Assembly (NCBI GenBank): GCA_024639325.1
Contig: JAHEIO010000004.1
Coordinates: 8,801 to 72,800, forward strand
Direction: 5' to 3'
DNA: 64,000 nucleotides
Source of the DNA: Gammaproteobacteria bacterium
GTDB lineage: Bacteria; Pseudomonadota; Gammaproteobacteria; Arenicellales; JAANXG01
Below the pieces are notes generated by a model. It did no database searches. It was not told the DNA's origin and saw nothing but the letters and a program-made list of their open reading frames with translations. Numbering within the stretch: the first letter of the stretch is position 1; each line of letters starts with the position of its first letter. Below, piece by piece: positions 4,978-45,450 of the stretch. Position numbers and translations under genes: made by a program.

Positions 4978-5382
4978 TCACGCCTGCTCGATCTCGATCA
5001 GAGTGCCGAGAAAGTCCTTTGGATGCAGGAACAATACCGGTTTGCCGTGGGCGCCGATCTTCGGCTCGCCGTTACCCAGAACCCGTGCACCACGTTCCGT
5101 CAGGTGCTGTTTCGCGGCCGATATGTCCTCTACTTCATAGCACAGATGATGCACGCCGCCGTCGGGGTTGCGCTCGAGGTGCTTCCGGATCGGCGACGCG
5201 TCCCCCAGCGGGTATAACAGTTCGATTTTTGTGTTGGGCAGCTCCACGAAAACCGTAGTGACGCCGTGTTCAGGCATGTCTTTTGGCTCCGACACCCTGG
5301 CGCCCAGGGTTTCCGCATAAGTTGCAGCCGCCGCTGCCAGATCCGGCACTACTATTGCCACGTGATTCAGTTTGCCTATCAT
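4978..5382 (-). CDS. mce: Methylmalonyl-CoA epimerase (VOC/glyoxalase fold)
   Basis: 134 aa with MIGKLNHVAIVVPDL and HHLCYEVEDI. It has a 4-nt ATGA overlap with meaB upstream and is the last gene of the mutase/carboxylase operon. Confidence 0.85.
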   Translation of the reverse strand: MIGKLNHVAIVVPDLAAAAATYAETLGARVSEPKDMPEHGVTTVFVELPNTKIELLYPLGDASPIRKHLERNPDGGVHHLCYEVEDISAAKQHLTERGARVLGNGEPKIGAHGKPVLFLHPKDFLGTLIEIEQA

Positions 5383-6371
5383 GGGACCTCCGCATTCATG
5401 AACAAATCGATTAGTTTCTCTGCCGCTACCGTTGCTGGTATCTTCAGCCCGACCACATCATTCTCCAGTCTATCGACACATCGAGCCAGATCGGGGCTCT
5501 GCCGCATTCTGCCAAGGAGCAGATCGGACACTTCTTCCCACAGCCAGGCCCTGGCCTGTTGGCCGCGCCGCATCGACAAGATGTCGCTGTGACGAATGAT
5601 ATCGCGATAACGCTGCACTGTGGACCAGACTTCCTCGATTCCCAGACCTTCCACAGCCGAAACGGTATTGGCCACCACGGTCCAGTCGGCAGTGCGCGGT
5701 TTGAGAAGCTGCAGCGCGTGCCGGTAGTCGGCCGCGGTGTGCTCGGCCGCAAAGCGCAACTCTCCGTCAGCCTTGTTGATGATTATGATGTCCGCCAGTT
5801 CGGTCACTCCCCGCTTTATCCCCTGCAGATCGTCTCCGCTCCCTGGTAGCAGCAACAACATAAACATATCCGTCATCCTCGCGGCCGCCGTTTCAGATTG
5901 CCCGATACCCACGGTCTCCACCAGAATGAGATCGAAACCTGCCGCCTCACACAACAGCAGCGCGTCGCGGGTGCGCCGGTTGACCCCGCCCAGGACCCCA
6001 CCCGTGGCAGACGGCCGTATGAAGGCGTCCTCCCGGCGAGCCAGATCCTGCATCCTCGTCTTGTCACCAAGGATGGCGCCCCCGGTGACGGGTGATGACG
6101 GATCGATTGTGAGCACGGCTACACGTCGGCCCTGCTCCAGAACGTGGAGCCCGAATGCTTCGATGAAAGTAGATTTTCCAACGCCCGGTACGCCGGATAT
6201 GCCAATTCTGAATGAGGACCCGGTATAGGGCATGATCGAGGTCAAAAGGCTCAGCGCAGACTGTCGGTGGTCCGCCCGGGAGGATTCCACCAGCGTAATG
6301 GCTCGAGCCAGTGCACGGCGATCCCCCTCCCGCAGCTTACGCGCAAGCTGCTCCACATCCTGTGGATTCAC
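5379..6371 (-). CDS. meaB: Methylmalonyl-CoA mutase accessory GTPase MeaB/ArgK
   Basis: P-loop GVPGVGKST and an NKAD (NKxD) motif in 330 aa. It sits in the operon with the mutase. Confidence 0.9.
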   Translation of the reverse strand: MNPQDVEQLARKLREGDRRALARAITLVESSRADHRQSALSLLTSIMPYTGSSFRIGISGVPGVGKSTFIEAFGLHVLEQGRRVAVLTIDPSSPVTGGAILGDKTRMQDLARREDAFIRPSATGGVLGGVNRRTRDALLLCEAAGFDLILVETVGIGQSETAAARMTDMFMLLLLPGSGDDLQGIKRGVTELADIIIINKADGELRFAAEHTAADYRHALQLLKPRTADWTVVANTVSAVEGLGIEEVWSTVQRYRDIIRHSDILSMRRGQQARAWLWEEVSDLLLGRMRQSPDLARCVDRLENDVVGLKIPATVAAEKLIDLFMNAEVP

Positions 6372-6377
6372 CGGCCG

Positions 6378-8366
6378 CTACTCGAACCGGAGGATCGGTT
6401 GATCGACAACCAGGCTGTCCCCTTCCTGGCACAGGATTTTCTCTACCACGACATCTTGAGGAGCTCGCAGTACGTTTTCCATCTTCATGGCCTCCACCAC
6501 AGCCAGTTCTTCTCCGTCCTTTATCTGATCACCCTCGCGCGCCTTCAGTTGAACCAACAGGCCCGGCATGGGAGACAACAAGAATTTCGACAGGTCCGGA
6601 GGAGCCTTAACCAGCATGTGGTGGTTCAGCTCCGCCCCTTTGTTGGTCAGCACCATGACGCTGACCACCACGCCGTCATAGATCATTCTGTATTTTACGC
6701 CTTCCGGTTCGATCTGCATGCAGACCTCGTCCCCGTTGATCAACGCGCTAAACAATGGGCGGCCGATGCTCCAGTCGGTGGTGACCCTATAGGTCCGGCC
6801 CCTGTAGATCACATCGTAGCCGTGCGCCACCGGAATGATCTTAATCGGATGGTAATCGTTGCCCATTACGACGACCCGGTCCAGAGTTTGTTTCTCGGAC
6901 CCCGCCCGAGGTGTCCTCCCGCTGATCCTGTTCGCTCGAAGCCAGTGTACGTGGTGAATCGTGCCGGCCGAAACGACGAACATCGCGCTGTTGGAATCAT
7001 CGATCCCGGGGTCGCTGTAGCCCTCGGGGTACTCGTCACTGATGAAGTTAGTGCTCAGATCTCCTTCCATGAACCTGGGATGGGCCATCAAAGAATTGAG
7101 AAAGCCGATGTTGTGCGATATGCCCCTGATGTAATACTGGTTGAGCGCCTGCCTCATATACCCGATGGCTTCCTTTCGGGTACCGCCATGGGTAATCAGC
7201 TTGGCGACCATCGGATCGTAGTACATGGAGACCTCGCCGCCCTCGAAAACTCCGGTATCTACGCGAATCCTTGCGCTTTGCTGTGGAGGCTGGTACCGGA
7301 TCAGGCGTCCGGTTGACGGCAGGAAACCGCGTGCCGGATCTTCAGCGTAGACGCGTGTTTCGACCGCCCACCCGCTGAGGTGGACATCGCGTTGATCCAT
7401 CGTCAGCACCTCGCCCGCCGCGATACGAATCATGAGTTCGACTAGATCGAGGCCCGTGACCATTTCAGTCACCGGGTGCTCGACCTGCAGGCGCGTATTC
7501 ATTTCCAGAAAAAAGAAATTCTTGTCGGTGTCCACGATGAATTCGACGGTTCCCGCAGATTGATAGTCCACCGCTTTTGCCAGGCTGACCGCCTGCTCAC
7601 CCATGGCACGGCGCGTATCGGGGTCAATGAAAACCGAGGGCGCCTCCTCGATGACCTTCTGATGCCGTCTCTGAATCGAACACTCGCGTTCCCCGAGATA
7701 GAGCACTTTACCCTGACTGTCGGCAATGATCTGGATCTCGATATGCCGCGGCTGTTCGATAAACTTTTCCACGAAGACGCGGTCATCCCCGAAGCTGCTC
7801 CGCGCCTCGTTGCTCGCGCGTTCGAATCCATCCAGGCATTCCCGGTCGTCGTAGGCGACACGCATACCCTTGCCACCGCCACCGGCGCTCGCCTTCAGCA
7901 TGACGGGATAGCCGATGTCGTTGGCGATGCTGACAGCCTTTCCGGCGTCTTCGATCACACCGGTATAGCCGGGTATAGTATTCACCCCGGCCTTCTGGGC
8001 GATCTTCTTCGATTCGATTTTGTCACCCATTGCCTCTATGGCGCGGGTATTGGGTCCAATGAAAACGATGCCCTCGGCTGACAATGCCTCGGAAAACTCC
8101 TTGTTCTCGGACAGGAATCCGTATCCGGGATGGACGGCATCGGCGCCGGTTTGCTTACAGGCGGCGAGAATATTGTCGATTACCAGATAGCTCTCCGACG
8201 ATGGCGCGGGGCCGATGCCGACCGCCTCGTCTGCCTTTTCGGTATGCAGCGCGTTTTGATCGGCGTCCGAATAAACCGCAACGGTTGCTATGCCCATTTT
8301 TTGCGCAGTTCGGAATACCCGGCAGGCTATCTCGCCCCGGTTCGCAACCAGAATTTTGTTGAACAT
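6378..8366 (-). CDS. pccA: Propionyl-CoA (acyl-CoA) carboxylase alpha subunit: biotin carboxylase plus biotinyl carrier domain
   Basis: The N-terminus MFNKILVANRGEIACRV indicates a biotin carboxylase ATP-grasp domain. The C-terminal EAMKMEN motif is the biotinylation site. The gene is next to the carboxyltransferase subunit. Confidence 0.88.
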   Translation of the reverse strand: MFNKILVANRGEIACRVFRTAQKMGIATVAVYSDADQNALHTEKADEAVGIGPAPSSESYLVIDNILAACKQTGADAVHPGYGFLSENKEFSEALSAEGIVFIGPNTRAIEAMGDKIESKKIAQKAGVNTIPGYTGVIEDAGKAVSIANDIGYPVMLKASAGGGGKGMRVAYDDRECLDGFERASNEARSSFGDDRVFVEKFIEQPRHIEIQIIADSQGKVLYLGERECSIQRRHQKVIEEAPSVFIDPDTRRAMGEQAVSLAKAVDYQSAGTVEFIVDTDKNFFFLEMNTRLQVEHPVTEMVTGLDLVELMIRIAAGEVLTMDQRDVHLSGWAVETRVYAEDPARGFLPSTGRLIRYQPPQQSARIRVDTGVFEGGEVSMYYDPMVAKLITHGGTRKEAIGYMRQALNQYYIRGISHNIGFLNSLMAHPRFMEGDLSTNFISDEYPEGYSDPGIDDSNSAMFVVSAGTIHHVHWLRANRISGRTPRAGSEKQTLDRVVVMGNDYHPIKIIPVAHGYDVIYRGRTYRVTTDWSIGRPLFSALINGDEVCMQIEPEGVKYRMIYDGVVVSVMVLTNKGAELNHHMLVKAPPDLSKFLLSPMPGLLVQLKAREGDQIKDGEELAVVEAMKMENVLRAPQDVVVEKILCQEGDSLVVDQPILRFE

Positions 8367-8389
8367 GTTTTTTTATCCGGTTCCGAGGC

Positions 8390-9922
8390 TTACAGAGGGA
8401 TATTTCCGTGTTTGCGCCAGGGATTTTCCAGCTTCTTGTCTTTCAGCATAGACAGGGAGTGGCAAATACGAAGACGGGTGTCACGCGGCATAATCACGTC
8501 GTCAATGAATCCACGCCGTCCCACTATAAACGGGTTGGCGAACTTGCGCCGATACTCCTCGGTACGCGCGGTAATCTTCTCATCGTCGCCGATGTCTTTC
8601 CTGAAGATGATCTCTACCGCGCCTTTGGGGCCCATTACCGCGATCTCCGCAGAGGGCCATGCGAAATTCACGTCGCCCCGGAGATGCTTGGAGCTCATCA
8701 CATCGTAAGCACCACCGTAAGCCTTGCGCGTGATGACGGTAACCTTGGGAACGGTGGCCTCGGCGAAGGCATAAAGCAGTTTTGCGCCGTGCTTGATGAT
8801 GCCCCCATACTCCTGTGCCGTACCGGGCATAAAGCCGGGCACATCGACAAACGTCAGAACGGGAATATTGAACGCATCACAGAACCTGACAAATCGGCCC
8901 GCTTTGATCGAGGAATCGATATCCAAGCACCCTGCCAGCACCATCGGCTGATTCGCGACCACGCCGACCGTAGACCCTTCCATCCTGACGAAACCCACCA
9001 CGATGTTCTTTGCGTAATCCGGCTGCAGTTCGAAAAAGCTGTTCTCGTCAGCGACCTTGGTAATCAATTCTTTCATGTCATAAGGCATGTTGGGATCGGT
9101 CGGCACGAGGGAATCGAGCGAAGGCTCTACGCGATCCATTGGGTCGCTGGTGGGCCAGACCGGGGGGGGCTCATTGTTGTTTGCCGGCAGATAGTCGAAG
9201 AACTGGCGAAGTGACAGTAGCGCCTCAATGTCGTTGGCCAGCGCAAGGTCCGAAACGCCGGATTTGGTCGAATGCGTGATTCCGCCACCGAGTTCCTCGG
9301 CGGTGACCTCCTCATGGGTAACCGTCTTGACCACATCCGGGCCGGTTACGAACATGTAAGAACTGTCAAGAACCATGAAGATAAAATCCGTCATTGCCGG
9401 CGAATACACTGCGCCTCCGGCACACGGCCCCATGATCATGGAGATCTGGGGGATCACACCTGATGCGAGCACGTTCCTCTGGAATACGTCCGCATAGCCA
9501 CCAAGCGATGCGACGCCTTCCTGGATTCGCGCCCCGCCTGAATCGTTCAACCCGATAACCGGTGCGCCGACCTTGATGGCCTGGTCCATGATCTTGCAGA
9601 TTTTCTCCGCATGGGCCTCGGACAGGGAGCCGCCGAACACCGTGAAGTCCTGACTAAAAACGAAAACCACGCGGCCGTTGATAGTCCCGTATCCAGTAAC
9701 CACTCCATCCCCCGGAATGCGATGATCCGCCATCCCGAAATCGACGCATCGATGTTCGACGAACATGTCCCATTCCTCGAAACTTCCGTCATCGAGCAGC
9801 AGCTGGATACGTTCTCTAGCGGTTAGTTTACCCTTGCCATGCTGGCCATCGATGCGTTCCTGACCACCGCCCAGTCGGGCCGCGTTCCGCTTCTCTTCCA
9901 GTTCCCGAATGATTTCTTGCAT
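8390..9922 (-). CDS. pccB: Propionyl-CoA carboxylase beta subunit (carboxyltransferase)
   Basis: 510-aa carboxyltransferase-family sequence ([22 protein letters not shown]..., two crotonase-like halves). Context with pccA, the mutase and the epimerase supports the call. Confidence 0.88.
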
Positions 9923-9976
9923 ATCTACTCCCGACGGCCGTCGTTACAACGGTCCGAGATAAGGGCTTGCGTTGTG

Positions 9977-12142
9977 CTAGGCTGAATCCGCGCTCTTCCG
10001 ATGCTGCCTGGACTGCTCGATCAGGGAAAGAACTTCCGTGGCGGCCTCGGTGATGTTCGTCCCCGGTCCGTAGATGGCCGCAACGCCCTTCTCATAAAGT
10101 GCCTGATAGTCCTGCGGCGGGATGATGCCCCCGCATACCACGAGGATATCTCCGGCACCCTGTCGTTTCAGATCGCTCAGCAGCTGGGGCACCAGGGTTT
10201 TGTGCCCGGCGGCTTGCGAGGACACACCGATCAGATGCACATCGTTCTCTATTGCCTGGCGAACCGCCTCTTCGGGCAATTGAAACAACGGACCAATGTC
10301 GACGTCGAATCCGAGGTCGGCGAAGGCCGTTGCTATGACTTTTGCTCCCCGGTCGTGTCCATCCTGGCCCAGCTTCACCACCAGCATCCTGGGCCGACGC
10401 CCCTCTGTTTTCGAAAATGCCTCTACGGCCTCGATGATCTTCATGAATTCTTCGTCGTTCTTGTAGGCTGAGCTGTAAACCCCGCTTATCGAGCGTGACA
10501 CGGCCCGATGGCGGCCCCAGACCGCCTCCATAGCGTCCGAGATCTCACCGACACTGGCGCGCTGCCGCGCAGCGTCGACGGCGAGGGCAAGCAGATTGTC
10601 CTGGTTTTCCGTGCCCCGCTTTAGGGCATCCAGGGCGGCCTGGCATCGCTGCTCATCCCGCCCTTGGCGCACCGCGTGCAGTCTCCTGATCTGAGCCTCC
10701 CGAACCGCCGTATTGTCGATGTCACGAACCTCCACCTCGGGTTCGTCCTCCAGCTGATACCTGTTGACGCCGACCACGACTTCCTCGCCCCGGTCCACCC
10801 GCGCCTGGCGCAGCGCGGCGGACTGCTCGATACGAAGTTTGGGCATCCCGGATTCGACCGCACGCGTCATGCCGCCGATCTCCTCGACTTCGTCGATGAG
10901 CTTGCGCGCTGCCGACGCCAGCGATGCGGTCAGGTGCTCGATGTAGAAGGACCCCGCCAGGGGATCGACTACCCGGGTAACGCCTGTTTCCTCCTGCAGT
11001 ATCAGCTGGGTGTTTCTCGCAATGCGTGCCGAAAACTCGGAAGGTAGGGAAAGCGCTTCATCGAAGGAGTTTGTGTGCAGGGACTGCGTCCCTCCGAGGG
11101 CCGCCGCCAGTGCCTCTATGGTCGTCCTTACGATGTTGTTGTACGGATCCAGGCTTGTCAGGCTCACGCCCGACGTCTGGCAATGCGTCCTCAGCATCAG
11201 GGAGCGCTTGTCGGTCGGTTCGAACAGTTCCTGCATCAGCGTGGACCACAACATCCTTGCCGCACGCAATTTCGCGATTTCCATGAAAAAGTTCATGCCG
11301 ATGGCGAAGAAAAAACTCAGGCGAGGAGCAAACCGATCCACGTCCAGGCCGCCGGCAAGCGCCGCGCGCACATACTCGATCCCGTCGGCAATGGTAAAAG
11401 CGAGTTCCTGCACGCAGGTCGCACCGGCTTCCTGCATGTGGTAACCCGATATGGATATCGAATTGAACTTGGGCATGTGCTGCGAGGAATAGGCGATGAT
11501 ATCCGCCACGATGCGCATCGACGGCTCCGGTGGATAGATATACGTGTTGCGCACCATGAATTCCTTGAGGATATCGTTCTGTATGGTGCCCGCCAGCTTC
11601 TCCGGCGGCACACCCTGCTCTTCGGCTGCGACGATATACATAGCCATTATTGGAAGCGCCGCGCCGTTCATCGTCATCGATACGGACATACGATCGAGCG
11701 GAATTCCGTCGAACAGCATCTTCATGTCTTCGATGGTATCGATTGCGACCCCGGCCTTGCCTACGTCACCCACTACACGGGGGTGGTCCGAGTCGTATCC
11801 GCGGTGGGTGGCCAGATCGAACGCAACGGACAATCCCGACTGTCCCGCGGCAAGATTTCTGCGGTAGAAAGCGTTGGACTCCTCGGCGGTCGAGAAACCG
11901 GCATACTGGCGAACCGTCCAGGGGCGCCCCGCATACATGGTCGCGCGAGGGCCTCTGATATAAGGCGGGAATCCGGGCAAACTGTCGACGAATTCCAGTT
12001 CCGCAAGGTCATCGGCCGTATAAAGCGGTTTCACTGCGATGCCTTCCGGCGTCTCCCAGGTCAGTTCGTCGACGGATCTGCCCCTGAGTTCTTTGGCGGC
12101 GAGATCCCGCCAGTCGTTATTTACATTTTTTGCCGATGTCAC
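9977..12142 (-). CDS. scpA: Methylmalonyl-CoA mutase, single-chain form with C-terminal B12-binding domain
   Basis: 721 aa with GTG start and AAGGAGGA SD. Contains [25 protein letters not shown] and the DxHxxG cobalamin motif ([10 protein letters not shown]). Confidence 0.93.
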
Positions 12143-12217
12143 CGGGTCATCCTCCTTGCGATGCAGCGCCCGAATGCGCCGCTTTATGCGGTGCCGGAGC
12201 GCGGATTAGAGTTGCGC

Positions 12218-12255
12218 ATTATACGCGAGAGAGAGAAATGTTGCAGTGCCGCAAT
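12218..12255 (-). promoter_or_regulatory. Putative promoter of the mutase-pcc-meaB-mce operon with an overlapping PhaR-type operator-like box
   Basis: The minus strand reads ATTGCGGCACTGCAACA-15 nt-TATAAT. The -10 is at 12218-12223. The box at 12239-12255 covers the -35 position and matches the phaP tandem repeat at 14 of 17 positions. Confidence 0.5.
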
Positions 12256-12342
12256 ATCGCCGCGTGGTGGAGATGACGCGGTGTGTGTACAGACTCAGGC
12301 CGTTGAACTGGTCCGACTTCGACGAGGGGGTAGACAGATGGT

Positions 12343-13419
12343 TCAGTCTCTTTCTGCCAGCCACCCGCCGATGGCGGGGGGTATCGTCTTCTGTGATTTT
12401 CCACTGACGTAGATACCGATGTGACCGCCGTCGAAGGTAAGCTCCTGATAATCCGCCGATCCGACGAGGTCCTTAAGCGCCCGGGATGAGTCTGGCGGAA
12501 CTAGGTGATCCTGTGTGGCGTAGACATTCAACACGGGGATATCGATTTCCCCAAGTTCGATGGATCTGTCTCCGATCCTCAACCCGCCCGCTATCAGACC
12601 GTTCTTGTGGAAGAATTCCCTGACGAACTGGCGGAACGCCTCTCCGGCCTGGTCCGGGCTGTCGAAGATCCATTTCTCCATCTGCATGAAGTTCCTCGCG
12701 CTGTTTTCATCCTTGATTATGTCCACCATGTCGACATACTTCTGGCCCATGAGTTGAAACGGCTTCAGGTTCAGGAAGGTCCAGTTGAGCAATTCACCCG
12801 GTACGTTACCCAGAGTATCCACCAGGAGATCGATATCCACGTGTTCAACGCTTTTGGTCAAGATGTTGTCTGCTGTCCTGAAATCCACGGGGGTTACCAT
12901 CGTAACCAGGTTTTTTATCTTTTCCTGATGCGTCGCTGTGTAACAAAGGCTGAAGGTGCCCCCCTGACAAATACCCAGCAGATTGATTTTCTCTCTCCCG
13001 AGCGATTTTCGGATAGCGTCCACACAGCGGTCGATATAGCCGTTGATATAGTCGTCCAGGGTGAGGAACCTGTCCGCCCGGTCCGGGTAACCCCAATCGA
13101 TGAGATATACATCCATTCCGGCATCGAGCAGCCCCCGTATCATCGACCGATTCTCCTGAAGATCGGTCATGTAGGGCCTGTTGACCAGTGCGTATACGAT
13201 CAGCAACGGCACCCGTGGAAGCTTATCCAACTGATCCGCGGCTTTGTATCTGTAAAGAACGAGTTTGTCTTCGTCATATACGGCATCGCGTTCGGTCACA
13301 CCCGTTTCCAAATCCCCTAGCCCGCTGAGTCTGCTCAGGCCCGCACCAAGCTTCCGCGCAAAATCGGCCATCTCCCTGGAGACCTGTTCCGGATGCAGTT
13401 GAAACGGGATCCGGGTCAC
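12343..13419 (-). CDS. phaC: Class III poly(3-hydroxyalkanoate) synthase, catalytic subunit PhaC
   Basis: 358 aa, the class III size. It has a lipase-box-like GICQGGT motif with the catalytic Cys and lies immediately downstream of phaE. Confidence 0.88.
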   Translation of the reverse strand: MTRIPFQLHPEQVSREMADFARKLGAGLSRLSGLGDLETGVTERDAVYDEDKLVLYRYKAADQLDKLPRVPLLIVYALVNRPYMTDLQENRSMIRGLLDAGMDVYLIDWGYPDRADRFLTLDDYINGYIDRCVDAIRKSLGREKINLLGICQGGTFSLCYTATHQEKIKNLVTMVTPVDFRTADNILTKSVEHVDIDLLVDTLGNVPGELLNWTFLNLKPFQLMGQKYVDMVDIIKDENSARNFMQMEKWIFDSPDQAGEAFRQFVREFFHKNGLIAGGLRIGDRSIELGEIDIPVLNVYATQDHLVPPDSSRALKDLVGSADYQELTFDGGHIGIYVSGKSQKTIPPAIGGWLAERD

Positions 13420-13488
13420 CCTAAGCTGCCCATGGTCGATTGAGGTGTGTTGCGGTTCAACGTTTCTCTCCTCGCAGCTTTATTTTGT

Positions 13489-14541
13489 TCACCGGTTTTT
13501 TTTCGTTTCACCGGCGCCCTGCTTTCGTATTGCTTTCTTTGGCGAAGTTTTTTTGCGACCAGGCGCTTTCTTCACGGCGGTTTGCGATCTTCCCCTGGAC
13601 AATCTTTCGATCCTGCCGCAGAGTTCGGTTACCTGGCGTGTCAGGTCCGCTTCCCGGCGTTTCAGCATCTCAACCCGCTGTTCGAGATCTTTGGAGGTAC
13701 GCCTCGCGGCCTGGGATCGAAGATTTATGGTATCCATTTCCCGCCGCGTCGGCATGTTCATCATGTCGACCCAATCATCCATCATCATTGCAGCTTGCTG
13801 TTTCAACGCCATCAGCGCGTTGACCCTATCTCCATGCAGTCTGGCGTACTCATCGGTCATGGTGCGGGCCTGATACACCGCCTCGCTGCAGTCCACCCAC
13901 AGATCGTAGAATTCCCGGACCGTTTTGAGCGGCTCCGCTCCGTCTTCAACTCGCGCCGTCAAACGCTCGCGCATCGAATCGAGCGACTCCTTGCTCATTT
14001 CGACAAAAAAATTGTTATAGCTCTGCTGGGTCTTCAGGTAGTCGAGCGTCAGCCGGTTTAGCTTCTGCATACCCGCCTGGGATTCGCGCGTATAGCCCAG
14101 CCCGGGGATAGACAAGAGCTGTTCCCACTTGGCCCGTGGATCAAATGCCGGTTGTCCGCCAACCGCCGCAAGCTGGTCGCTGGAAAATCCGGGCATCGAG
14201 GAAACCATGCTTTGCCAATTGGCCAGAGGCATCTGCCAGAAAAGGTTCCGGGCCTGATTCGTGGACGGCGTGTCGAAAGCCTGATTCAATTCATTGAACA
14301 TACGGTCCAGACTGGCCTGCCAGTCCGTGCCGGTGCTGTTGCCCGGATCGAGTTTTGCCAGTTCCTCCCCCAACTGGAAAAAAGAATGACTCTGCGCGGC
14401 GATTTTCTCGAAAACCGGGAGCGACGACGAGTCACCCTGCCTGGAAAACTGCCGCCACCAATCCTCGAGGGTACTTTGCCAGGGCTGGTGTGACAGCAGG
14501 TCCCGCCAGGATTCAAACCACTGGTCGCTCCAATTACTCAT
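13489..14541 (-). CDS. phaE: Class III PHA synthase subunit PhaE
   Basis: 350 aa with a W-rich N-terminus (MSNWSDQWFESWRDLL...) and a lysine-rich tail. Its position upstream of a class III phaC matches Chromatiaceae-type phaEC operons. Confidence 0.75.
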   Translation of the reverse strand: MSNWSDQWFESWRDLLSHQPWQSTLEDWWRQFSRQGDSSSLPVFEKIAAQSHSFFQLGEELAKLDPGNSTGTDWQASLDRMFNELNQAFDTPSTNQARNLFWQMPLANWQSMVSSMPGFSSDQLAAVGGQPAFDPRAKWEQLLSIPGLGYTRESQAGMQKLNRLTLDYLKTQQSYNNFFVEMSKESLDSMRERLTARVEDGAEPLKTVREFYDLWVDCSEAVYQARTMTDEYARLHGDRVNALMALKQQAAMMMDDWVDMMNMPTRREMDTINLRSQAARRTSKDLEQRVEMLKRREADLTRQVTELCGRIERLSRGRSQTAVKKAPGRKKTSPKKAIRKQGAGETKKNR

Positions 14542-14594
14542 CGCGCGTAGTGACTAAAGGGGTCCGGGTGAGGCGCCGGACTGTAGCAAACATA

Positions 14595-14611
14595 ATTGTG
14601 CATCGCAACAA
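14595..14611. promoter_or_regulatory. TGC-rich box (ATTGTGCATCGCAACAA) in the phaE/phaR divergent region, a possible PhaR autoregulatory site
   Basis: Shares the ATTG..TGCA..GCA.CAA skeleton with the phaP operator repeats. It is followed by TATGAT/TAATAC -10-like hexamers. Confidence 0.3.
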
Positions 14612-14682
14612 AACACGTTATGATGATGTTAATACTACATTTTTTGGGGATGGTTCAGGATGACCACCTTGAGAACGGGCGT

Positions 14683-15159
14683 ATGAGAATCATCAAGAAA
14701 TACCCTAACCGGCGCTTGTACGATACGGAACAAAGCCGTTATATCACGCTGGTGGATCTGCAACAGCTGGTATTAGAGGAAGAGGATTTCCAGGTCATAG
14801 ACGCCAACTCCAGCGCTGATCTCACCCGGAATATCCTACTCCAGATCATCGCTGAACAGGAAAGCGGTGGAAAACCCATGTTCACCGCCGACATTCTGAT
14901 GCGGATCATCAGATTATACGGAGATTCCGTGCAGGATACGCTTACCCAGTATCTCGAAAAAAGCCTGAGTCTGTTCGATGAGCAGCAGCGAGCACTGCAG
15001 GATCAGATGCGGGGTGCTCTGCATGAGAATCCAATGACGTCGCTGATGACCGAGCTGACCAAGAAGAATCTCGAGATATGGCAGGATGTCCAGGACAGTT
15101 TTTTCAAGGCCTCGGCCATGCCCGGAAAATCCGAAAAAAAAGAAGACAAACCGGAATAA
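14683..15159 (+). CDS. phaR: PHA synthesis repressor PhaR
   Basis: MRIIKKYPNRRLYDTEQSRYITL...LTRNILLQIIAEQE is the conserved PhaR N-terminal DNA-binding region. I chose the ATG at 14683 rather than the ORF-track start at 14596. Confidence 0.88.
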   Translation: MRIIKKYPNRRLYDTEQSRYITLVDLQQLVLEEEDFQVIDANSSADLTRNILLQIIAEQESGGKPMFTADILMRIIRLYGDSVQDTLTQYLEKSLSLFDEQQRALQDQMRGALHENPMTSLMTELTKKNLEIWQDVQDSFFKASAMPGKSEKKEDKPE

Positions 15160-15244
15160 CCACGATCTACCGCGCCGTATAGCGGCCCAAAGCCGTGGAA
15201 ATCAGACTGACGGTTTTTTAGATTTCCTTGATGGAATCGCCTAA

Positions 15245-15258
15245 TGCGGGCTAGCCCG
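15245..15258. repeat. Third copy of the palindromic motif (TGCGGGCTAGCCCG)
   Basis: Read directly, in the phaR-phaP intergenic region 85 nt after the phaR stop. Confidence 0.5.
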
Positions 15259-15291
15259 TCAAAATCTTAACGGAATATTCGAAAACGAGGC

Positions 15292-15348
15292 TTGACAACG
15301 GAAAAGCAAGGAATTATGCTGCACTGCACAAATTGCTGCACTGCACAA
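15292..15348 (+). promoter_or_regulatory. phaP promoter (TTGACA-17 nt-TATGCT) overlapped by a tandem 17-bp operator-like repeat
   Basis: The -35 is at 15292-15297 and the -10 at 15315-15320. The tandem units TATGCTGCACTGCACAA (15315-15331) and ATTGCTGCACTGCACAA (15332-15348) are identical at 16 of 17 positions. Confidence 0.6.
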
Positions 15349-15391
15349 TAAACTACTTTGTCAACTTTGTTATCGAGAGGTATACCGGAAA

Positions 15392-15769
15392 ATGCAGAAC
15401 GACTACTTCAAATCGCTAAATGAATTCAGCGCCAATGCGATGGAAGCGGCTAAATCATTGGGCGAAATTAACAGCAAACTCATGGAAAAGACCATTGCAC
15501 TGCAGATGAAAGCCGCCGACCTGATGGTCGAAGGCAGCATGAAGCAGGGCCAGATGGTGCAGGAAACCAAGGAAGTAAAAGACTACCTCGCCAAACAGGC
15601 GAGCCTAGTCGAGGAGTATGCCGAGAAATTCGTTGAATTGGCGAAATCAAATGTCGAGCTGGCTCAGGAAGCCGGCGATGACTACAAGGCCTGGGTCGAG
15701 AAGAACATGAAAACCGCCGACAAGGTGGCCAAGACTGTCGCCAAGAAGGCACCAGTCAAAGCTGCGTAA
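15392..15769 (+). CDS. phaP: Phasin (PHA granule-associated protein)
   Basis: 125 aa, alanine/lysine/glutamate-rich and amphipathic-helical, with a phasin-like N-terminus (FKSLNEFSANAMEAAKSLGEINSKLMEK). It lies downstream of phaR and is followed by a strong terminator. Confidence 0.75.
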   Translation: MQNDYFKSLNEFSANAMEAAKSLGEINSKLMEKTIALQMKAADLMVEGSMKQGQMVQETKEVKDYLAKQASLVEEYAEKFVELAKSNVELAQEAGDDYKAWVEKNMKTADKVAKTVAKKAPVKAA

Positions 15770-15922: not shown

Positions 15923-16942
15923 ATGGGCCAATCCTCATCGCGCAGCATTCTTCTGGTCGACGACGATCAAATCATTTTGGACACCCTGGGCTACGGCCTG
16001 CAGAAGTCGTCCTACATCGTCACGCAATGCGGCTCTGCGCGAGACGCGCTTGAACAGTACACCAGCTCACCACCGGATCTCGCCATTATCGACATTGGCC
16101 TGCCCGATATGAGAGGCACCGAATTGGCAGAGCAGTTGCTTCTGTATCGGTATCGCCCGATCTTGATCCTGTCCAGCCACAGTGAACCGGAGTGGATCGA
16201 CCGGGCAATCGGGTCCGGCGCCATCGGTTATCTGGTAAAACCCCTGACCCCGTCGCAGCTCATCCCAAGCATCGAGACGGCGTTGGCAAGATTCGGTGAC
16301 ATCAATCAAAGCATCGCCGGCAATTTCGCCAAAGGGGATATATCGGAGTCTCAGCTACGAGCGGCGATGGACCAGTTTTCTTTCGGTATCGTGATCATCG
16401 ACCAGGATCGTCGGATCATCCTATGCAACAGCGTTGGGCAAAGGTTCCTGGGCGACGCCAGACTCCTCAGGAACGCCAGTGGTAAATTGAAAACCACCGT
16501 GAGGAACGATCAGCTGACGGCCCTGCTTGATCAAAGCCTAGGCGAAATCAACGGCCATTCCGCACCCGCCGCGTTCTGCATGCACGACGACATAAATGAA
16601 AAGACAACCCAAATATGGGCGACACCGCTGCATGTCCCGGGGCACGGCACGGAACAGACCGCGATCGTGATCATCAACGACTCATCTCACAACACCGCTG
16701 TTCCATCATTTCTGTTCAAGAGCATGTATGGATTTACTGAAAAGGAATGCAAGCTGGCACACGCTCTGACAAATGGCGTGTCGATTAACCAATACTGCGA
16801 AAAAGTGTACGTCACGCCCAATACCGCGCGTACGCACCTGAAATCCATCTATCGCAAAACTTCGACTAATCGACAGGCGGAACTGATCTGTCTCCTGTCC
16901 CGTTTATATATCAACCTGACCGATGGGAACGGCGAAGACTAG
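15923..16942 (+). CDS. Response regulator with receiver, PAS-like middle and LuxR-type HTH domains (orphan)
   Basis: REC motifs (ILLVDDD, DLAIIDIGLPDMRG, GYLVKP). The middle region resembles a PAS fold (FGIVIIDQDRRIILCN). The C-terminal LuxR HTH reads FTEKECKLAHALTNGVSINQYCEKVYVTPNTARTHLKSIYRK. Confidence 0.8.
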   Translation: MGQSSSRSILLVDDDQIILDTLGYGLQKSSYIVTQCGSARDALEQYTSSPPDLAIIDIGLPDMRGTELAEQLLLYRYRPILILSSHSEPEWIDRAIGSGAIGYLVKPLTPSQLIPSIETALARFGDINQSIAGNFAKGDISESQLRAAMDQFSFGIVIIDQDRRIILCNSVGQRFLGDARLLRNASGKLKTTVRNDQLTALLDQSLGEINGHSAPAAFCMHDDINEKTTQIWATPLHVPGHGTEQTAIVIINDSSHNTAVPSFLFKSMYGFTEKECKLAHALTNGVSINQYCEKVYVTPNTARTHLKSIYRKTSTNRQAELICLLSRLYINLTDGNGED

Positions 16943-19900
16943 CCTGTATATCCTGTTTGACGCCAACGATTTGGCGTGATCCCGCGAAGACCTCACCGGT
17001 CCGGCCATGAATCGAGAGCACGTCGCCGGCGTGTACGGTGTGGGCGGGGTCGCCGTTGGCGTCCACCAGGATAGCCTCTGCCGGAGCCACCCGCAGTTCC
17101 GCCACGCCCAGGACCGCGCTGTAGGGTCTGTCTTCGATGCCATGCACGGCGACCGCGGCGTGCGACGTCGAGCCGCCTCGAGCCGCCAGCAGCCCGCCCA
17201 CTGAAAGGATCAACGGAATTTCGTCGGGAACCGGATTTTCCAGAACCAGCAGCACCCCATCCACTTCCTGACCGGGGTCGTGCATCGTCTCTGTGAGACG
17301 CTTGACATCCGCCTCGTCGAAGGCGACCAGCCCGCGGTAAGCACCGCCGCTGATGCCAATGCCGCGCCCCCCTGGCGCGCCCGGGTCGTCGAACGTACGG
17401 GGACTGTACTGCATTTCCACCTGTGCGCTACGTGCCTGCAGCACGCTCAGCACGCCGCGGTCAACGGTGAATTCGATCTCCGCATCGGAGCCGAGGTAGC
17501 GGCGCAGGCGAGCGCTGATGTGGTTCAGTTTGCGTTCGAGCATCGGCGCCAGGGAATGCAGACGCTGCACCGGCTCAAAGGATTTCGCCGCCGTCAGCCC
17601 CCCCACCAGGTCATCGCCACAGGCACTAAATTTCACATCTCCGGTGAACGCGCGAAATCCGCAGACCTGCATGCGCGTCTTGGGAATCACACCGGTGAGT
17701 GACATGCGCATCTCGTCCATTCCCGGCTGTAATTCCTCTGTATTAGACCGGTTGCCCGATGCCATCTGCTGCACGATCGCCGCCGTATGCCATCCCTCGC
17801 TCAGATGCTTGATGGCCCGGTAGCGGCGCGCCCGTTCCCGGTTCCAGGAGGTGTGCACCGCCCCCAGGGCGGTGTGCAACTGATGTTCAACGCTGCCAAG
17901 AATCGCCTCCAGCTGATCCGCGTAGCCCGCATCCCGAATCGCGTCCTTCGAAGATTCGACCACCTCGCGCATGGCCACTCCCGAAAGCTGGGTCTTGAGC
18001 GCCGCATTGTTGCGACGCTTGGCTTGTTCGACCAGACCCAGTGGCTCGAGGTCCAGTTGCCACACGGCCGAGGCATAAGACACCAGGAAGCGCCGGTAGG
18101 CATCCCATGCATACCACTCGTCATCGCGTGCCAAGGCCTCCGCCACCGCGTCGGTCATGCCGACGAAAACCACCGTCGCCAGCATGCCCGGCATCGAGAA
18201 CACGGAGCCGCCGCGCACGGCGAGCAGCAGCGGCGCATCGGCATCACCGAGATGCAAGGGTGTCCCCTCATTGCGAGCGATGTCATCCTCGAGTAGCTGT
18301 AAGTGCCGCAATACTTCGCGCTCGAAGCGCCTCCGGTCGCTGTTGTGCAGGCCCAGACGCGGCAGCACCGTCGGGATAATGAAGCCGTCTCGCGTTGGGA
18401 TGCCGAGATAGGCAATGTAGATCAGCCCGCTGCCTTTGCCCCCGTAGCGCGCCTGCAGGCTGACGGATTCCCGGTTCTCGACCCGGTCCACGATATCTTG
18501 CGTGTGCGACAGGTGAACGAAGTCCCACGGTCCCTCACCGGCACTCCCTTGACCCGCCCAGGACAGATCACTGCCGCATTCAGAGATATATTCCCGCGCC
18601 AAGTCCGAAAAGTGCACAAGGCTGTTCAGGTCATGCATCGTGCGCTGGAAGTTGGCCAGCACCCCACGCATTTCGTCGTCTGCATAGCCCAGCTGCCCGG
18701 CCATGACTTCGTAAGCTTCGCTGACACGTTTCACCAATCGGTGGTAGTTGCGTTGAATCTGGGCAAGCACGTCGAGCAGTTCGGACGGCGCCCGCTCCGC
18801 ATTGACCAGCATCACCGACAGGTCCCACAGTTCGCGCGAGAACAGACCATCCTGCTCCAGGCTGCCGGCACACAGGTGCACGATGCGCAAACACTCTTCC
18901 AGTGCCACACCCCGCTCCATGTAGCCCGAAGCGACGTGTCTCAAGGCGAGAAACCCCAACTCCTCCAAAAGACAATCGAGCTGATATAAAAGATAGCGCT
19001 GGCTGGTGAAGACGCCGCTGCCGACCAAGGACTCGAGTTCGCGTCGCAGCGCACAGCTGCGTTCGAACGCATCAAACGGTGCGCCACCTCGATAACGTTC
19101 GAGCAGCTCGTCTAGCGAGGCAAATAGGGCGTCCTGGTGGTGATGACGCATCCCCCGGCAGAACGCATTCACCGCCGTGCGCGCGTCGCGTTCGACCTCG
19201 TCGGCAGGAAATCCGGCTTCGTCTGGCATGACCTCCTGCAAATGCTTCAGGCTCTTTTCAAACGGCTCGCGGACATCGTCCGGCCAGGCGCCGTCCCTCA
19301 GCTTGCTCGCAAAGCTGCCTAGACGATGCTGATAGACCCACCGGTTACCTGCCCGAATGCCATTGGCAACCAGGGATTCGAGCTCCTCGTCCAGGATTTT
19401 TGTCGATTCGCAGCGCACCAGTTCGTCCGCGTAAGTATTGCGCCACTCGACAAGGCGCTGCGCAATTTGCGAACTGTCCAGGAGCTGCTCGAGATTGACG
19501 ATGACACGCTTCACCAGTTCCAACGCCCCGCTGCACGATCGGGCAGCTTCATCGGCCGGGCCGGGAACCTCCCTGGCCGCGTCCGGAAAATCCGCTTCGC
19601 CGGTCTGCAGCCATTGCCGGTATGCGCGCGCCAGGTCGAGTGTGTGTTTGCCCATCGCATGGTGCGTGCTTCTTCGGATTTCGTTGGTTATCGCACTGCC
19701 GCGCACGTGCACCTCGGCAAGATCGATCGTATCCTGCCAGACTTCGTCGATCAGCTTGGGCCGCGACACCAAACCCGAGATACTGCGGACAAGTATGCGT
19801 GTCGGCAATCGCAGACGGGATGCAAATGGGCCGTTCATGAATTCTGCCAGCTGGTCGCGGACAAGCCTGATTTCGGGCCGGAGATTCTTGGCGCCCGGCA

Positions 19901-20513
19901 TTCCGCGGTACGACGCGCCGCAAAGCCGCGCCACCATGAAACGCAATAGATACACTGCCTCGTGGCGGCTGCCGCAGGTATTCAGGCGCCTGAGTACGCC
20001 GGCCAGATCGCGCAGGCGGGCAACCTGAATGGCGGGCATATCGTCGATCTCCAGGTGATAGATATCACGCTCGAGGTCAATGGCGTCTCCCTGCAGTCCA
20101 GCGAGTGCGGCAACCAGGGCATCCGTGATCAAGGTTCCGTGAGGCAGCTGCAGCTGCGCGATGAGATACTCCGAATTTCCTTGCAGCGCGTATATCGACA
20201 ACCTGCCGTGCGCATCGTAAGGTACTATCAGCGTATCTCCAGCTCTGAAGACTCGATGATTGGCGACTTCGAACAGCCTGTAGCGTTGGCCAAGGAAGGT
20301 CATCGTTTGCAGGTAGCGGCGCAACGCGCAGTTGTGCTCGTCCTCATTGCCCCGTGGGCCATAAGCGGCGAACAGCGCGCTATTCAATGCGCTGATATGC
20401 TCACGCTCTTGCACACTGAAAGGTTCCTCTTTGCCGGGAACCGAATTCACCATCGGGATGCGGGGCGCGCAGATACCGAAGCCATCTGGTCGGCCTTTAC
20501 CAGTGATGTTCAT
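16911..20513 (-). CDS. PPDK/PEP-synthase-family dikinase-like protein with ~670-aa unassigned N-terminal region and no PEP/pyruvate TIM-barrel domain
   Basis: ATP-grasp nucleotide-binding region (RYGGKGSGLIYI...GFIIPT, LLLAVRGGSVFSMPGMLATV, YRRFL, AIVQQM) from about aa 689. The C-terminal swivel phosphohistidine domain reads GGLLAARGGSTSHAAVAVHG, with the His codon at 17160-17162. The ORF ends about 80 aa after it. Confidence 0.75.
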   Translation of the reverse strand: MNITGKGRPDGFGICAPRIPMVNSVPGKEEPFSVQEREHISALNSALFAAYGPRGNEDEHNCALRRYLQTMTFLGQRYRLFEVANHRVFRAGDTLIVPYDAHGRLSIYALQGNSEYLIAQLQLPHGTLITDALVAALAGLQGDAIDLERDIYHLEIDDMPAIQVARLRDLAGVLRRLNTCGSRHEAVYLLRFMVARLCGASYRGMPGAKNLRPEIRLVRDQLAEFMNGPFASRLRLPTRILVRSISGLVSRPKLIDEVWQDTIDLAEVHVRGSAITNEIRRSTHHAMGKHTLDLARAYRQWLQTGEADFPDAAREVPGPADEAARSCSGALELVKRVIVNLEQLLDSSQIAQRLVEWRNTYADELVRCESTKILDEELESLVANGIRAGNRWVYQHRLGSFASKLRDGAWPDDVREPFEKSLKHLQEVMPDEAGFPADEVERDARTAVNAFCRGMRHHHQDALFASLDELLERYRGGAPFDAFERSCALRRELESLVGSGVFTSQRYLLYQLDCLLEELGFLALRHVASGYMERGVALEECLRIVHLCAGSLEQDGLFSRELWDLSVMLVNAERAPSELLDVLAQIQRNYHRLVKRVSEAYEVMAGQLGYADDEMRGVLANFQRTMHDLNSLVHFSDLAREYISECGSDLSWAGQGSAGEGPWDFVHLSHTQDIVDRVENRESVSLQARYGGKGSGLIYIAYLGIPTRDGFIIPTVLPRLGLHNSDRRRFEREVLRHLQLLEDDIARNEGTPLHLGDADAPLLLAVRGGSVFSMPGMLATVVFVGMTDAVAEALARDDEWYAWDAYRRFLVSYASAVWQLDLEPLGLVEQAKRRNNAALKTQLSGVAMREVVESSKDAIRDAGYADQLEAILGSVEHQLHTALGAVHTSWNRERARRYRAIKHLSEGWHTAAIVQQMASGNRSNTEELQPGMDEMRMSLTGVIPKTRMQVCGFRAFTGDVKFSACGDDLVGGLTAAKSFEPVQRLHSLAPMLERKLNHISARLRRYLGSDAEIEFTVDRGVLSVLQARSAQVEMQYSPRTFDDPGAPGGRGIGISGGAYRGLVAFDEADVKRLTETMHDPGQEVDGVLLVLENPVPDEIPLILSVGGLLAARGGSTSHAAVAVHGIEDRPYSAVLGVAELRVAPAEAILVDANGDPAHTVHAGDVLSIHGRTGEVFAGSRQIVGVKQDIQASLRRSHRSG

Positions 20514-21052: not shown

Positions 21053-22387
21053 ATGAAAAAGCTGTTGCTGTCCGTATTGTTGCTGGGACTGACTGCCGTC
21101 GTGGCCGTGGTGCCCTACTGGTTTGGGGTGGAGGCGGAACGAATTTTTGAACGGCAGATGACGCTGCTGGATTCCAGCAACAAGATCAGCGTGGTGGAAA
21201 GCCGATTTCGCCGTGGCTGGATGCGCTCCGTGGCCGAGACCACGTTTGCCATCCGCGATTACCAATTAACCGTGCTTGCGGTGCACACCGTGGACCACGG
21301 CCCGTTGCCGATCAGCAATCCCGTCAGGTATCTCCTGGCGCTACAGCCACTTCTGGCTTTGATACATTCGGAACTCAGCATCCCGGGCGCGCGTGCTCCG
21401 GAAGCGGAACAGCCTTTCGGCACCTTGTCTACCACCGTGAATTTAGACAGCACGACCAAAACCCGGATCGAGATTCCAGCCGCGGATGCCCAGTTGGAAG
21501 ACGCCGCAACAATGGCCTGGAAGCGAATCCAGGGTAGCGTTGATTTCGAACCTTCCAACGCGTCTTGGCAAGGGAGTATGGACCTAGGTGGAATCGACTG
21601 GTCGCAGCACGATTACAGTTTCAGCCTCGGCAAGTCCACCCTCACGTTCCTGACCTATCCGGGCAGAACCGGGCTGGCTATGGGAAACTCGACTCTGGTC
21701 ACCGAATCACTGCGGGCGCGTATCCCGGATTCGGAACACCTGTTCGAGTCCAAAGATCTGGTTGTCACCTCGACGGCGACGGAACAGGGCCAGAATGTCG
21801 AATACAAGATGTCCGGCGAGTTCGCTTCCGCCCTGTTGCCGACCCTCGAGCTTACCGGTGCAACCTGGCACCTTTCGGCGCACGATCTGGATCTGGATAC
21901 GCTGACCGATCTGAACGACCTGAGTGTCGATTCAGCCATACCGCTCAACAAAGTACTTGCGCTGGTATCGAAGCGCAACGCAAGACTGGATTCCGGGCTG
22001 ACACTGCGGACGGATTCCGGACCATTGGCCGCTACGGCCAGGGTAAAATTGTCGGGTGACGGTAATTCTTCTAACCCGCTCGCGCTGATTGGCGCACTCG
22101 ACGGCGACATACAGCTCGAAGTACCCGCTGCGGTGGCGGAACTCGCGGCACTGGCGGCGGTCAAGAAAGAACTGTCGGATCTGGACCCTGGCGGCCAGCA
22201 GCAACCGATGTCCGCGCAAGACGAAGAGTCGTTGATGAATCAAGCGGTACCGGCAAGGCTTCAGTCGTGGTTGGATGGGAATTTGTTGACGCAGGAAGGC
22301 GACCGCTATCGGTTCCAGGCCTCCATCAGAGAGGGTTCCGTAAGCCTCAACGGCAAACCGTTTAACCTGCTGTCGCTACTGCGTTGA
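21053..22387 (+). CDS. Secreted/anchored protein, YdgA-like (DUF945-type) hypothetical
   Basis: N-terminal signal/anchor MKKLLLSVLLLGLTAVVAVVPYWFG. Its size and N-terminal pattern resemble the YdgA family. Low certainty. Confidence 0.5.
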   Translation: MKKLLLSVLLLGLTAVVAVVPYWFGVEAERIFERQMTLLDSSNKISVVESRFRRGWMRSVAETTFAIRDYQLTVLAVHTVDHGPLPISNPVRYLLALQPLLALIHSELSIPGARAPEAEQPFGTLSTTVNLDSTTKTRIEIPAADAQLEDAATMAWKRIQGSVDFEPSNASWQGSMDLGGIDWSQHDYSFSLGKSTLTFLTYPGRTGLAMGNSTLVTESLRARIPDSEHLFESKDLVVTSTATEQGQNVEYKMSGEFASALLPTLELTGATWHLSAHDLDLDTLTDLNDLSVDSAIPLNKVLALVSKRNARLDSGLTLRTDSGPLAATARVKLSGDGNSSNPLALIGALDGDIQLEVPAAVAELAALAAVKKELSDLDPGGQQQPMSAQDEESLMNQAVPARLQSWLDGNLLTQEGDRYRFQASIREGSVSLNGKPFNLLSLLR

Positions 22388-29963: not shown

Positions 29964-30026
29964 AGTTAGCGCATTGCACCAATTCACGTATTGCTCAAAC
30001 ACTTTAGATTCAACGAGGAAAATCAA

Positions 30027-45231: not shown

Positions 45232-45330
45232 TCCTCCCATTGGTTCGATTTCCGGGCGGGAGTGCAGTGCACCAGTAAGGCCTCTGGAAAATCCGACTGA
45301 TTTCCTTATAATCCTCGTCCCCTGATTTCC

Positions 45331-45450
45331 GCCGCTTGAGGAGCGCTGCAACCCGCCATCCGGCTGTTTCCGGCTGGCCGGCCAGGCTCAAGCGGATTCG
45401 GGAAAAACCCGAATAACGGCGCTCACTCGTGCTCTGAAAAGAGTGAGGAG
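45331..45450 (+). promoter_or_regulatory. SAH (S-adenosylhomocysteine) riboswitch with SD-sequestering expression platform, controlling ahcY
   Basis: Conserved core CTTGAGGAGCGCTGCAACC...GGCCAGGCTCAAG...AACGGCGCTCAC. P1 is CTTGAG (45335-45340) paired with CTCAAG (45387-45392). GAGCGC/GCGCTC forms the pseudoknot pairing. Downstream, CTCACTC (45422-45428) can pair with GAGTGAG (45441-45447), which overlaps the GAGGAG SD. Confidence 0.8.

Follow-up and report, generated by a model that had tools for sequence, protein, structure and literature searches.

A predicted PhaR operator at the promoter of a methylmalonyl-CoA operon adjoining class III PHA synthase genes in an uncultured gammaproteobacterium

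Known PhaR operators and regulons

PhaR is, to our knowledge, the sole regulator known to sense the physical presence of polyester granules. Its sites are quasi-palindromes around TGC-N3-GCA and have been described in several forms: the B. diazoefficiens motif TGCRNYGCASMA, obtained from footprints (PMC6201568), the H. seropedicae motif TG[N]TGC[N]3GCAA, from MEME plus a footprint (PMC3206438), the R. sphaeroides motif CTGC[N]3GCAG, quoted in the latter paper, the S. meliloti motif YGCRNYGCR with A/T arms (PMC12542648), and the R. eutropha motif YTKNTGCRNYGCANMAR (PMC12849132). The footprinted oligo of R. eutropha phaP1 includes TTTGGTGCGCCGCAACAA. Repression by granule titration is the established model for phaP and phaR (PMC3570403, PMC12849132, PMC12542648), and PhaR is able to activate too (PMC12849132, PMC6201568).

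The site described here, upstream of a methylmalonyl-CoA mutase gene, resembles the PhaR/PhbF/AniA operators of R. eutropha, P. denitrificans, H. seropedicae, B. diazoefficiens and S. meliloti in the regulator family concerned and in the TGC-N3-GCA core with T/A-rich arms. The arrangement is also alike, with boxes that overlap the -35, the -10 or the start, in tandem on phaP and as a single weaker site on phaR (PMC3570403, PMC3206438, PMC6201568, PMC12849132, PMC12542648). Unlike those systems, however, the predicted target is a methylmalonyl-CoA operon, which is listed in none of those studies, the organism is a gammaproteobacterium whose synthase is of class III (PhaEC), and the core begins with G or C, not T, in most orthologues.

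Recent work has shown that the PhaR regulon reaches into central metabolism (PMC6201568, PMC10888616, PMC12542648). In these pleiotropic regulons boxes are found at central-carbon genes outside the pha cluster (pdhA, pckA, ppc and cyoA in B. diazoefficiens; ppdK, gltA, zwf, sdhC and panC in S. meliloti), often as single sites of lower affinity, much as predicted for the mutase site (PMC6201568, PMC10888616, PMC12542648). The main texts of the B. diazoefficiens and S. meliloti regulon studies name no propionyl-CoA carboxylase, methylmalonyl-CoA mutase, MeaB or epimerase, and, unlike the targets in those regulons, the one proposed here directly adjoins the synthase genes, with which it forms a fused operon in some relatives. 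The palindrome of the Candidatus Accumulibacter ‘PHA modulon’ is a further parallel, being likewise a predicted PhaR site in an uncultured organism, located upstream of phaC, phaP, phaR and further metabolic genes; the targets differ, however, and comprise acetate activation, a hydrogenase and a K+ transporter, whilst the Accumulibacter mutase falls in another expression cluster, unconnected to the motif (PMC4796919). Transcriptional control of pccB, pccA and mcm is itself known from Rhodobacter/Cereibacter, where it is exerted by PccR of the ScfR family, but this is an acyl-CoA-sensing activator of XRE type that uses paired boxes and is unrelated to PHA granules (PMC10370305, PMC12632250). 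The preliminary description of this locus had presented a place for propionyl/methylmalonyl-CoA metabolism in the PhaR regulon as not seen described before, and in our full-text searches, too, no report connected PhaR with the mutase, with propionyl-CoA carboxylase or with the ethylmalonyl-CoA pathway. Elements of this kind are well known and PhaR has already been seen as pleiotropic, whereas the predicted target, the mcm operon, appears to be new.

The pha-mcm cluster and its boxes

The window, that is, the whole stretch of 64,000 nucleotides (64 kb) analysed here, carries on its minus strand the putative target operon mcm-pccB-pccA-meaB-mce (4978-12142), as judged from gene calls and from relatives with the same order. 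It encodes a methylmalonyl-CoA mutase (mcm, 9977-12142), a PccB-like carboxyltransferase (pccB, 8390-9922), a biotin carboxylase (pccA, 6378-8366), MeaB (meaB, 5379-6371) and an epimerase (mce, 4978-5382). Directly upstream of mcm, on the same strand (12343-14541), are the class III PHA synthase genes phaE (13489-14541) and phaC (12343-13419). The predicted regulator gene phaR lies on the plus strand at 14683-15159 (start ATG at 14683), 2.4 kb from the mutase box; its product matches the TIGR01848 equivalog with 146 bits against a cut-off of 109.45, and the PhaR proteins of relatives have PHB_acc_N and PHB_acc domains. It is followed by the phasin gene phaP (15392-15769, plus strand), which scores 26.1 bits with TIGR01841, below the 30.2-bit cut-off, and whose orthologues carry Pfam Phasin_2. 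The neighbours of the mcm operon are phaC and a gene with an acyltransferase domain, and no regulator gene adjoins the operon in the 64-kb window. All of the gene identities first proposed (mutase, pccB, pccA, meaB, mce, phaC, phaE, PhaR and phasin) proved right, with profile matches. A separate feature of the neighbourhood is an ORF of 1200 aa on the minus strand (16911-20513), with weak PPDK_N and PEP-utilizers domains, which lies between a response-regulator gene (15923-16942) and a DUF945 gene (21053-22387). Since the latter two genes are adjacent in L161-L164, the ORF looks like an insertion specific to the lineage of the window.

Canonical boxes are present at the phaP promoter and at the divergent phaR/phaE promoters. 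The phaP promoter, TTGACA-17-TATGCT, is near-consensus and is the sole promoter-like match in the scanned region (12050-15450); together with its two tandem PhaR boxes it occupies 15292-15349 of the plus strand, the boxes (15316-15332 and 15333-15349) being located over the -10 and the start. Read as repeats, the tandem units are TATGCTGCACTGCACAA (15315-15331) and ATTGCTGCACTGCACAA (15332-15348), with a period of 17. A further box, ATTGTGCATCGCAACAA (14595-14611, plus strand), an exact match to TGCRNYGCASMA, is located on the -35 of the divergent phaR and phaE promoters. Its left half provides the -35 of phaR (TTGTGC, 14596-14601, then 17 nt and TATGAT, 14619-14624), and its right half, as reverse complement, that of phaE on the minus strand (TTGCGA, 14608-14603, then 17 nt and TACAGT, 14585-14580), so that a single PhaR box seems to be shared by the two divergent promoters. 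This box is near-identical in L081, L082, L162-L165 and L168, whereas L166 and L167, which are more distant, have variant cores. In most relatives with the near-identical box its flank consists of the block CTCTAGCAAA (the window and L081 have CTGTAGCAAA), the reverse complement of the phaE -10 region as proposed (TAGAGT/TACAGT); L167 lacks this block. A related box stands at the phaA promoter of L079.

The phaC stop (12343) and the GTG start of mcm (12142) enclose, on the minus strand, a gap of exactly 200 bp, whose sequence includes GATATTGCGGCACTGCAACAtttctctctctcgcgTATAAT and GCGATATTGCGGCACTGCAACATTTCTCTCTCTCGCGTATAATGCGC. The preliminary description had placed here a 17-mer, ATTGCGGCACTGCAACA (12255-12239), upstream of a TATAAT, and had matched it to the phasin tandem unit at 14 of 17 positions; both sequences and their coordinates hold, and the count is correct, for phaP box 2. 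We moved the register by one base, to that of the published 17-bp palindrome, which gives the predicted PhaR operator TTGCGGCACTGCAACAT with core GGCACTGCA (12238-12254, minus strand). The hexamer TATAAT (12218-12223, minus strand) would be the -10 of the mcm-operon promoter, and GTATAAT is the sole block without change in all eight aligned phaC-mcm gaps. Seventeen nucleotides 5′ of it is a weak -35-like hexamer, CTGCAA (12241-12246, minus strand), which matches TTGACA at three of six positions and is wholly within the box, and the mcm promoter remained below the threshold of the promoter scan. With TATAAT as -10, the box spans about -44 to -28 of this predicted promoter and so covers its -35, as had been claimed, a layout that is common to the mcm, phaR and phaE promoters.

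No Rfam family matched the gap, its RNA fold is not unusually stable (z-score -0.35), and its repeats amount to one weak 10-nt pair, TGCGGTGCCG and TGCAGTGCCG, 55 bp apart. There is no terminator-like site between phaC and mcm, so transcripts that start at the phaE promoter may continue into the mcm operon by read-through and add to its expression, a point that the preliminary description had overlooked. The leader of mcm contains CTCCGGCACCGCATAAA (12183-12199, minus strand), which has the core GGCACYGCA of the main box 55 bp downstream of it; L081, which is near-identical, retains it but L082 and L084 do not, and there is a weak possibility that it acts as a second, auxiliary site. Three other candidates were rejected: a site at the ribosome-binding site, TGCATCGCAAGG (12157-12168, minus strand), which has a 10-mer in common with the phaR box but scores 3.1 bits and is not found in L082 or L084; a sigma-54 promoter (GGCAC...TGCA), whose elements on inspection abut without the required spacer; and a ScfR/PccR operator, as the 200-bp gap has no paired boxes. 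For the design of a box mutant, the altered form of the core GGCACTGCA is GGTACTTTA.

Against YTKNTGCRNYGCANMAR the mutase box agrees at 15 of 17 positions, the two mismatches being within the limit of three used as acceptance rule in PMC12849132; against TGCRNYGCASMA it agrees at 10 of 12 positions (8 of the 10 specified ones), and from TG[N]TGC[N]3GCAA (PMC3206438) it differs by one base. Whilst the phaP boxes of the window (TGCACTGCACAA) fit the published motif perfectly and the phaR box (TGCATCGCAACA) does so at all positions but one, that of the mutase promoter (GGCACTGCAACA) departs at the first T and at the S position, its first core base being a G where published motifs have their most conserved T/Y. 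Likeness to a consensus alone is weak evidence, since 15 sites in the window match YTKNTGCRNYGCANMAR with at most two mismatches vs 8.5 expected. For TGCRNYGCASMA there are six exact matches vs 0.9 expected, namely the phaP boxes, the phaR promoter and TGCAGTGCACCA (45263-45274), and 23 matches at up to one mismatch. TGCAGTGCACCA is an exact 12-mer about 32 nt upstream of a TATAAT (45307-45312) and was set aside for its poorly scoring flanks; the region also has a SAH riboswitch (RF01057, 57 bits, 45332-45431, plus strand) before the S-adenosylhomocysteine hydrolase gene (45457-46872).

Because scans with the published consensuses are too permissive, we used a clade-specific matrix, made from the phaP and phaA/phaR promoter boxes of L082, L162, L163, L164, L079, L165, L166, L167 and L168 in the register of the 17-bp R. 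eutropha palindrome (PMC12849132), with the window and all mutase-promoter sequences left out. Over the approximately 128,000 positions of the 64-kb window, the mutase box ranked fourth (18.1 bits), behind the boxes of the phaR promoter (23.6 bits) and phaP (box 1, 23.2 bits; box 2, 23.0 bits), so the four top-scoring sites are all in the pha/mcm cluster. The next, at 41317 (17.1 bits), is inside an AcrB-type gene and was set aside. At 29966-29982, just upstream of glnA (29991-31436), TTAGCGCATTGCACCAA reached 14.6 bits; it contains the NtrC-type half-site TGCACCA, and glnA is followed at 31533-33984 by genes for a sensor histidine kinase and a sigma-54-dependent response regulator, consistent with ntrBC. 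It is likely a cross-hit of the matrix, which is thus not fully specific. By chance, 0.15 sites of at least 18.1 bits would be expected in 64 kb with this independent matrix, and the same figure, 0.15, applies to matches of at least 14/17 to one given 17-mer on both strands. A single match is by itself only moderately unlikely by chance. The exact core TGCNGCACTGCA, however, occurs three times in the window, only in the mutase and phasin promoters, and this restriction, together with the retention of the box in diverged relatives, indicates more than chance. In the same scan the motif was not at random frequency in the window, coding regions included, and the mutase box matches the phaP/phaR boxes better than does any other site of the window.

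Conservation in relatives and beyond the clade

In the genome collection the closest mutases (77% identity at best) were those of two Arenicellales-like metagenome-assembled genomes, L079 and L006, with phaE-phaC-mcm synteny; further relatives came from metagenome and protein look-ups. The closest of these, L081 (PhaC 97% identical), has a box identical to TTGCGGCACTGCAACAT. Orthologous boxes follow in L082 (PhaC 81%; TTGCCGCACTGCAACAT, 18.1 bits), L084 (78%; TTGCGGCACTGCAACAC, 13.7 bits), L171 (78%; TTGTCGCACCGCAACAT, 16.0 bits) and L165 (76%; ACGCTGCGCTGCAACAT, 16.1 bits), in each of the four 14-15 nt before GTATAAT, and in L085 (73%) the box is degraded (10.0 bits). In the eight-way alignment of the gap, outside the near-identical pair, only the box, the spacer and GTATAAT are conserved, the rest having diverged beyond alignment among the five boxed lineages (window/L081, L082, L084, L165 and L171).

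Substitutions within the box fall mostly on degenerate positions of the consensus. Across the five boxed lineages there is no change in G at position 3 or at positions 6, 7, 9 and 11-16 (GC, C, GCAACA); L165 alone departs from TT at positions 1 and 2, and columns 4, 8 and 10 vary within the N, R (A/G) and Y (T/C) of the consensus. The exception is column 5, which has G (window and L084), C or T against the T/Y of the motifs. In L165 the sequence is a perfect TGCGCTGCAACA, which is also listed among the B. diazoefficiens PhaR sites. Such a pattern resembles that of a constrained protein-binding site, and the stretch that seems to be constrained is much longer than a -35 hexamer.

Other relatives lack the box. 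Four of them (L163, L164, L079 and L006) have an mcm promoter of their own and no box, which makes the link between PhaR and mcm lineage-specific. L164 keeps the GTATAAT promoter and, of the box, only GCAACAT. L163, also with GTATAAT, has at the place of the box (9085-9160) a perfect 15-bp inverted repeat, CAGTATACTTTTTAA ... TTAAAAAGTATACTG, its arms about 40 nt apart, which might be a small insertion that displaced the operator. L079 (9760-9810) and L006 (1676-1725), a branch further removed, carry at the place of the PhaR box upstream of mcm another perfect palindrome, TTGACGCTGCGTCAA (TTGACGC-T-GCGTCAA), which extends over the phaC stop codon, has a conserved ATATATAATG after it and may be the operator of a different regulator.

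In three more relatives there is no gap at all: mcm starts 17-35 nt after the phaC stop in L162 (9077-9120), L168 (4440-4460) and L172 (1201-1229), so that phaE-phaC-mcm looks like a single operon, presumably with the pcc genes that follow. Here mcm lies downstream of a phaE promoter that has a PhaR box on its -35. If the phaR/phaE box is a PhaR operator, phaEC would be PhaR-controlled and the mcm operon of these fused relatives would inherit the control, the coupling being kept by two different architectures; this fusion was the other point missed by the preliminary description. In L166, L167, L169 and L170 mcm is not the next gene after phaC.

Beyond the clade, the 250-300 bp that precede mcm were scored in a set of 79 unrelated loci, mostly of Alphaproteobacteria. 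Eight of the 79 reached a shuffle p of 0.02 or less vs 1.6 expected (binomial p about 2e-4), although one of the eight, L032, has its site inside pccA and should be dropped. Scores of at least 11.4 were found in 9/79 regions upstream of mcm vs 7/260 upstream of other genes in these loci (Fisher p = 0.004), and two of those seven control regions are true pha promoters. PhaR-like boxes are thus modestly enriched upstream of mcm in unrelated proteobacteria. A perfect TGC-N3-GCA palindrome lies on or beside a TATA-like -10 in L020 (TTGCTGCGGTGCAAAAT, ~9940-9956), L043, L003, L005, L009 and L012; PhaR-type palindromes are also present within 130 bp upstream of mcm in L030 and L019. These data are suggestive, without being conclusive, of more than one recruitment of mcm to PhaR-like control. 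The link is not universal, since no box precedes mcm in the model alphaproteobacteria P. denitrificans, R. johnstonii 3841 and A. lipoferum 4B.

A proposed role and its alternatives

We favour, with moderate confidence, the interpretation that the 17-bp element is an operator of the nearby PhaR, which would repress the mcm operon until granules form. The PhaR-type operator proposed in the preliminary description is supported at the sequence level by the proximity of phaR, the canonical boxes, the fit to the consensus, the matrix rank and, as the principal argument, the conservation in five diverged lineages. The box would lie over the -35 region of a sigma-70-type promoter driving mcm-pccB-pccA-meaB-mce. 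As long as there are no polyester granules, free PhaR would sit on the mutase box, on the tandem phaP sites and on the single phaR/phaE site and keep RNA polymerase off these promoters by occlusion. Once PHA synthesis begins, PhaR would be titrated onto the granule surface and all these promoters derepressed, and the enzymes interconverting propionyl-CoA, methylmalonyl-CoA and succinyl-CoA would rise together with phasin and PHA synthase. Being single and having G for T at its first core base, the mutase operator is probably of lower affinity than that of the phasin gene, and may give a repression that is weaker or relieved earlier. Such a difference would parallel that measured between phaP and phaR in R. 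eutropha (PMC3570403). PhaR binding, the sign of the regulation, the transcription start and the physiological role are all inferred.

The same box could in principle serve the opposite purpose, a PhaR dimer centred near -35/-36 recruiting RNA polymerase to the poor -35 (CTGCAA), in which case the operon would be on without granules and fall as PHA accumulates. A hexamer with only three matches of six and a promoter that fails the consensus scan would suit an activator, and PhaR does activate phaP3 in R. eutropha (PMC12849132) and has boxes at the genes it activates in B. diazoefficiens and S. meliloti (PMC6201568, PMC12542648). We nevertheless consider activation unlikely, as the activating sites of R. 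eutropha precede the start by ~70 and 200 bp and do not lie on the -35, and as the box here covers the hexamer itself, like the one at the autoregulated phaR promoter. The box-less L163 and L164, moreover, keep the weak -35 and GTATAAT, so this promoter probably works without a bound protein. That persistence, with GCAACAT left in L164 after loss of the left half and able to serve as -35, could also mean that the block is just the -35 and upstream part of a housekeeping promoter, conserved with it, and that its likeness to a PhaR box is coincidental; the missing key T of the core and the chance expectation of 0.15 in 64 kb would agree with this. But the conserved stretch measures 17 bp, to about -44, far more than a hexamer needs; five lineages retain a left half (C/G/T)GC at the proper distance of 3 nt from GCA, and the changes in columns 4, 8 and 10 do not go beyond N, R and Y. 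With the perfect TGCGCTGCAACA of L165 and the clustering of the four best sites of the window in the pha/mcm region, this makes a plain promoter rather improbable.

We give little credence to an operator of another regulator, such as a ScfR-type PccR or a factor recognising TGC/GCA palindromes. In R. sphaeroides and R. capsulatus PccR does control pccB and genes downstream of it (PMC12632250, PMC10370305), NtrC-type TGCACCA sites score weakly with our matrix (29966, glnA), and L079 and L006 have their different palindrome, TTGACGCTGCGTCAA, at the same place. ScfR sites, however, consist of two near-identical boxes and a spacer (PMC10370305), a pair not seen in the gap; no regulator gene adjoins the operon within the 64-kb window, with a distant gene possible, and the box is closest to the phaP/phaR boxes of its own genome. 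We give hardly any credence to a functionless chance match with the operon transcribed only by read-through from phaE. The lack of a terminator-like site between phaC and mcm and the three relatives without a gap would fit, yet an invariant GTATAAT with a box at fixed spacing, amid flanks diverged beyond alignment, is unexpected for non-functional DNA.

Repression by PhaR, the interpretation we prefer, can be carried further, if tentatively and with more reservation than conviction: granule-titrated PhaR might directly gate the B12-dependent methylmalonyl-CoA pathway, and the link might have been recruited repeatedly, in the Arenicellales-like clade by a box at an internal promoter or by fusion of mcm-pcc to phaEC, and maybe independently in several alphaproteobacterial lineages. 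To the single site this adds the conserved synteny, the operon fusion with the class III synthase and a possible wider distribution.

A direct PhaR site on the mcm operon would tie polymer storage to the route by which propionyl-CoA is made or consumed. This compound is the precursor of 3-hydroxyvalerate units, on which the material properties of PHBV depend. The tie would account for the location of the operon beside, or fused with, class III synthase genes in a clade of uncultured marine gammaproteobacteria. If the link was indeed recruited repeatedly, the status of the storage polymer would be a general input to the flux between propionyl-CoA and succinyl-CoA, for instance towards 3-hydroxyvalerate units or in the last steps of assimilation of acetyl-CoA from mobilised polymer.
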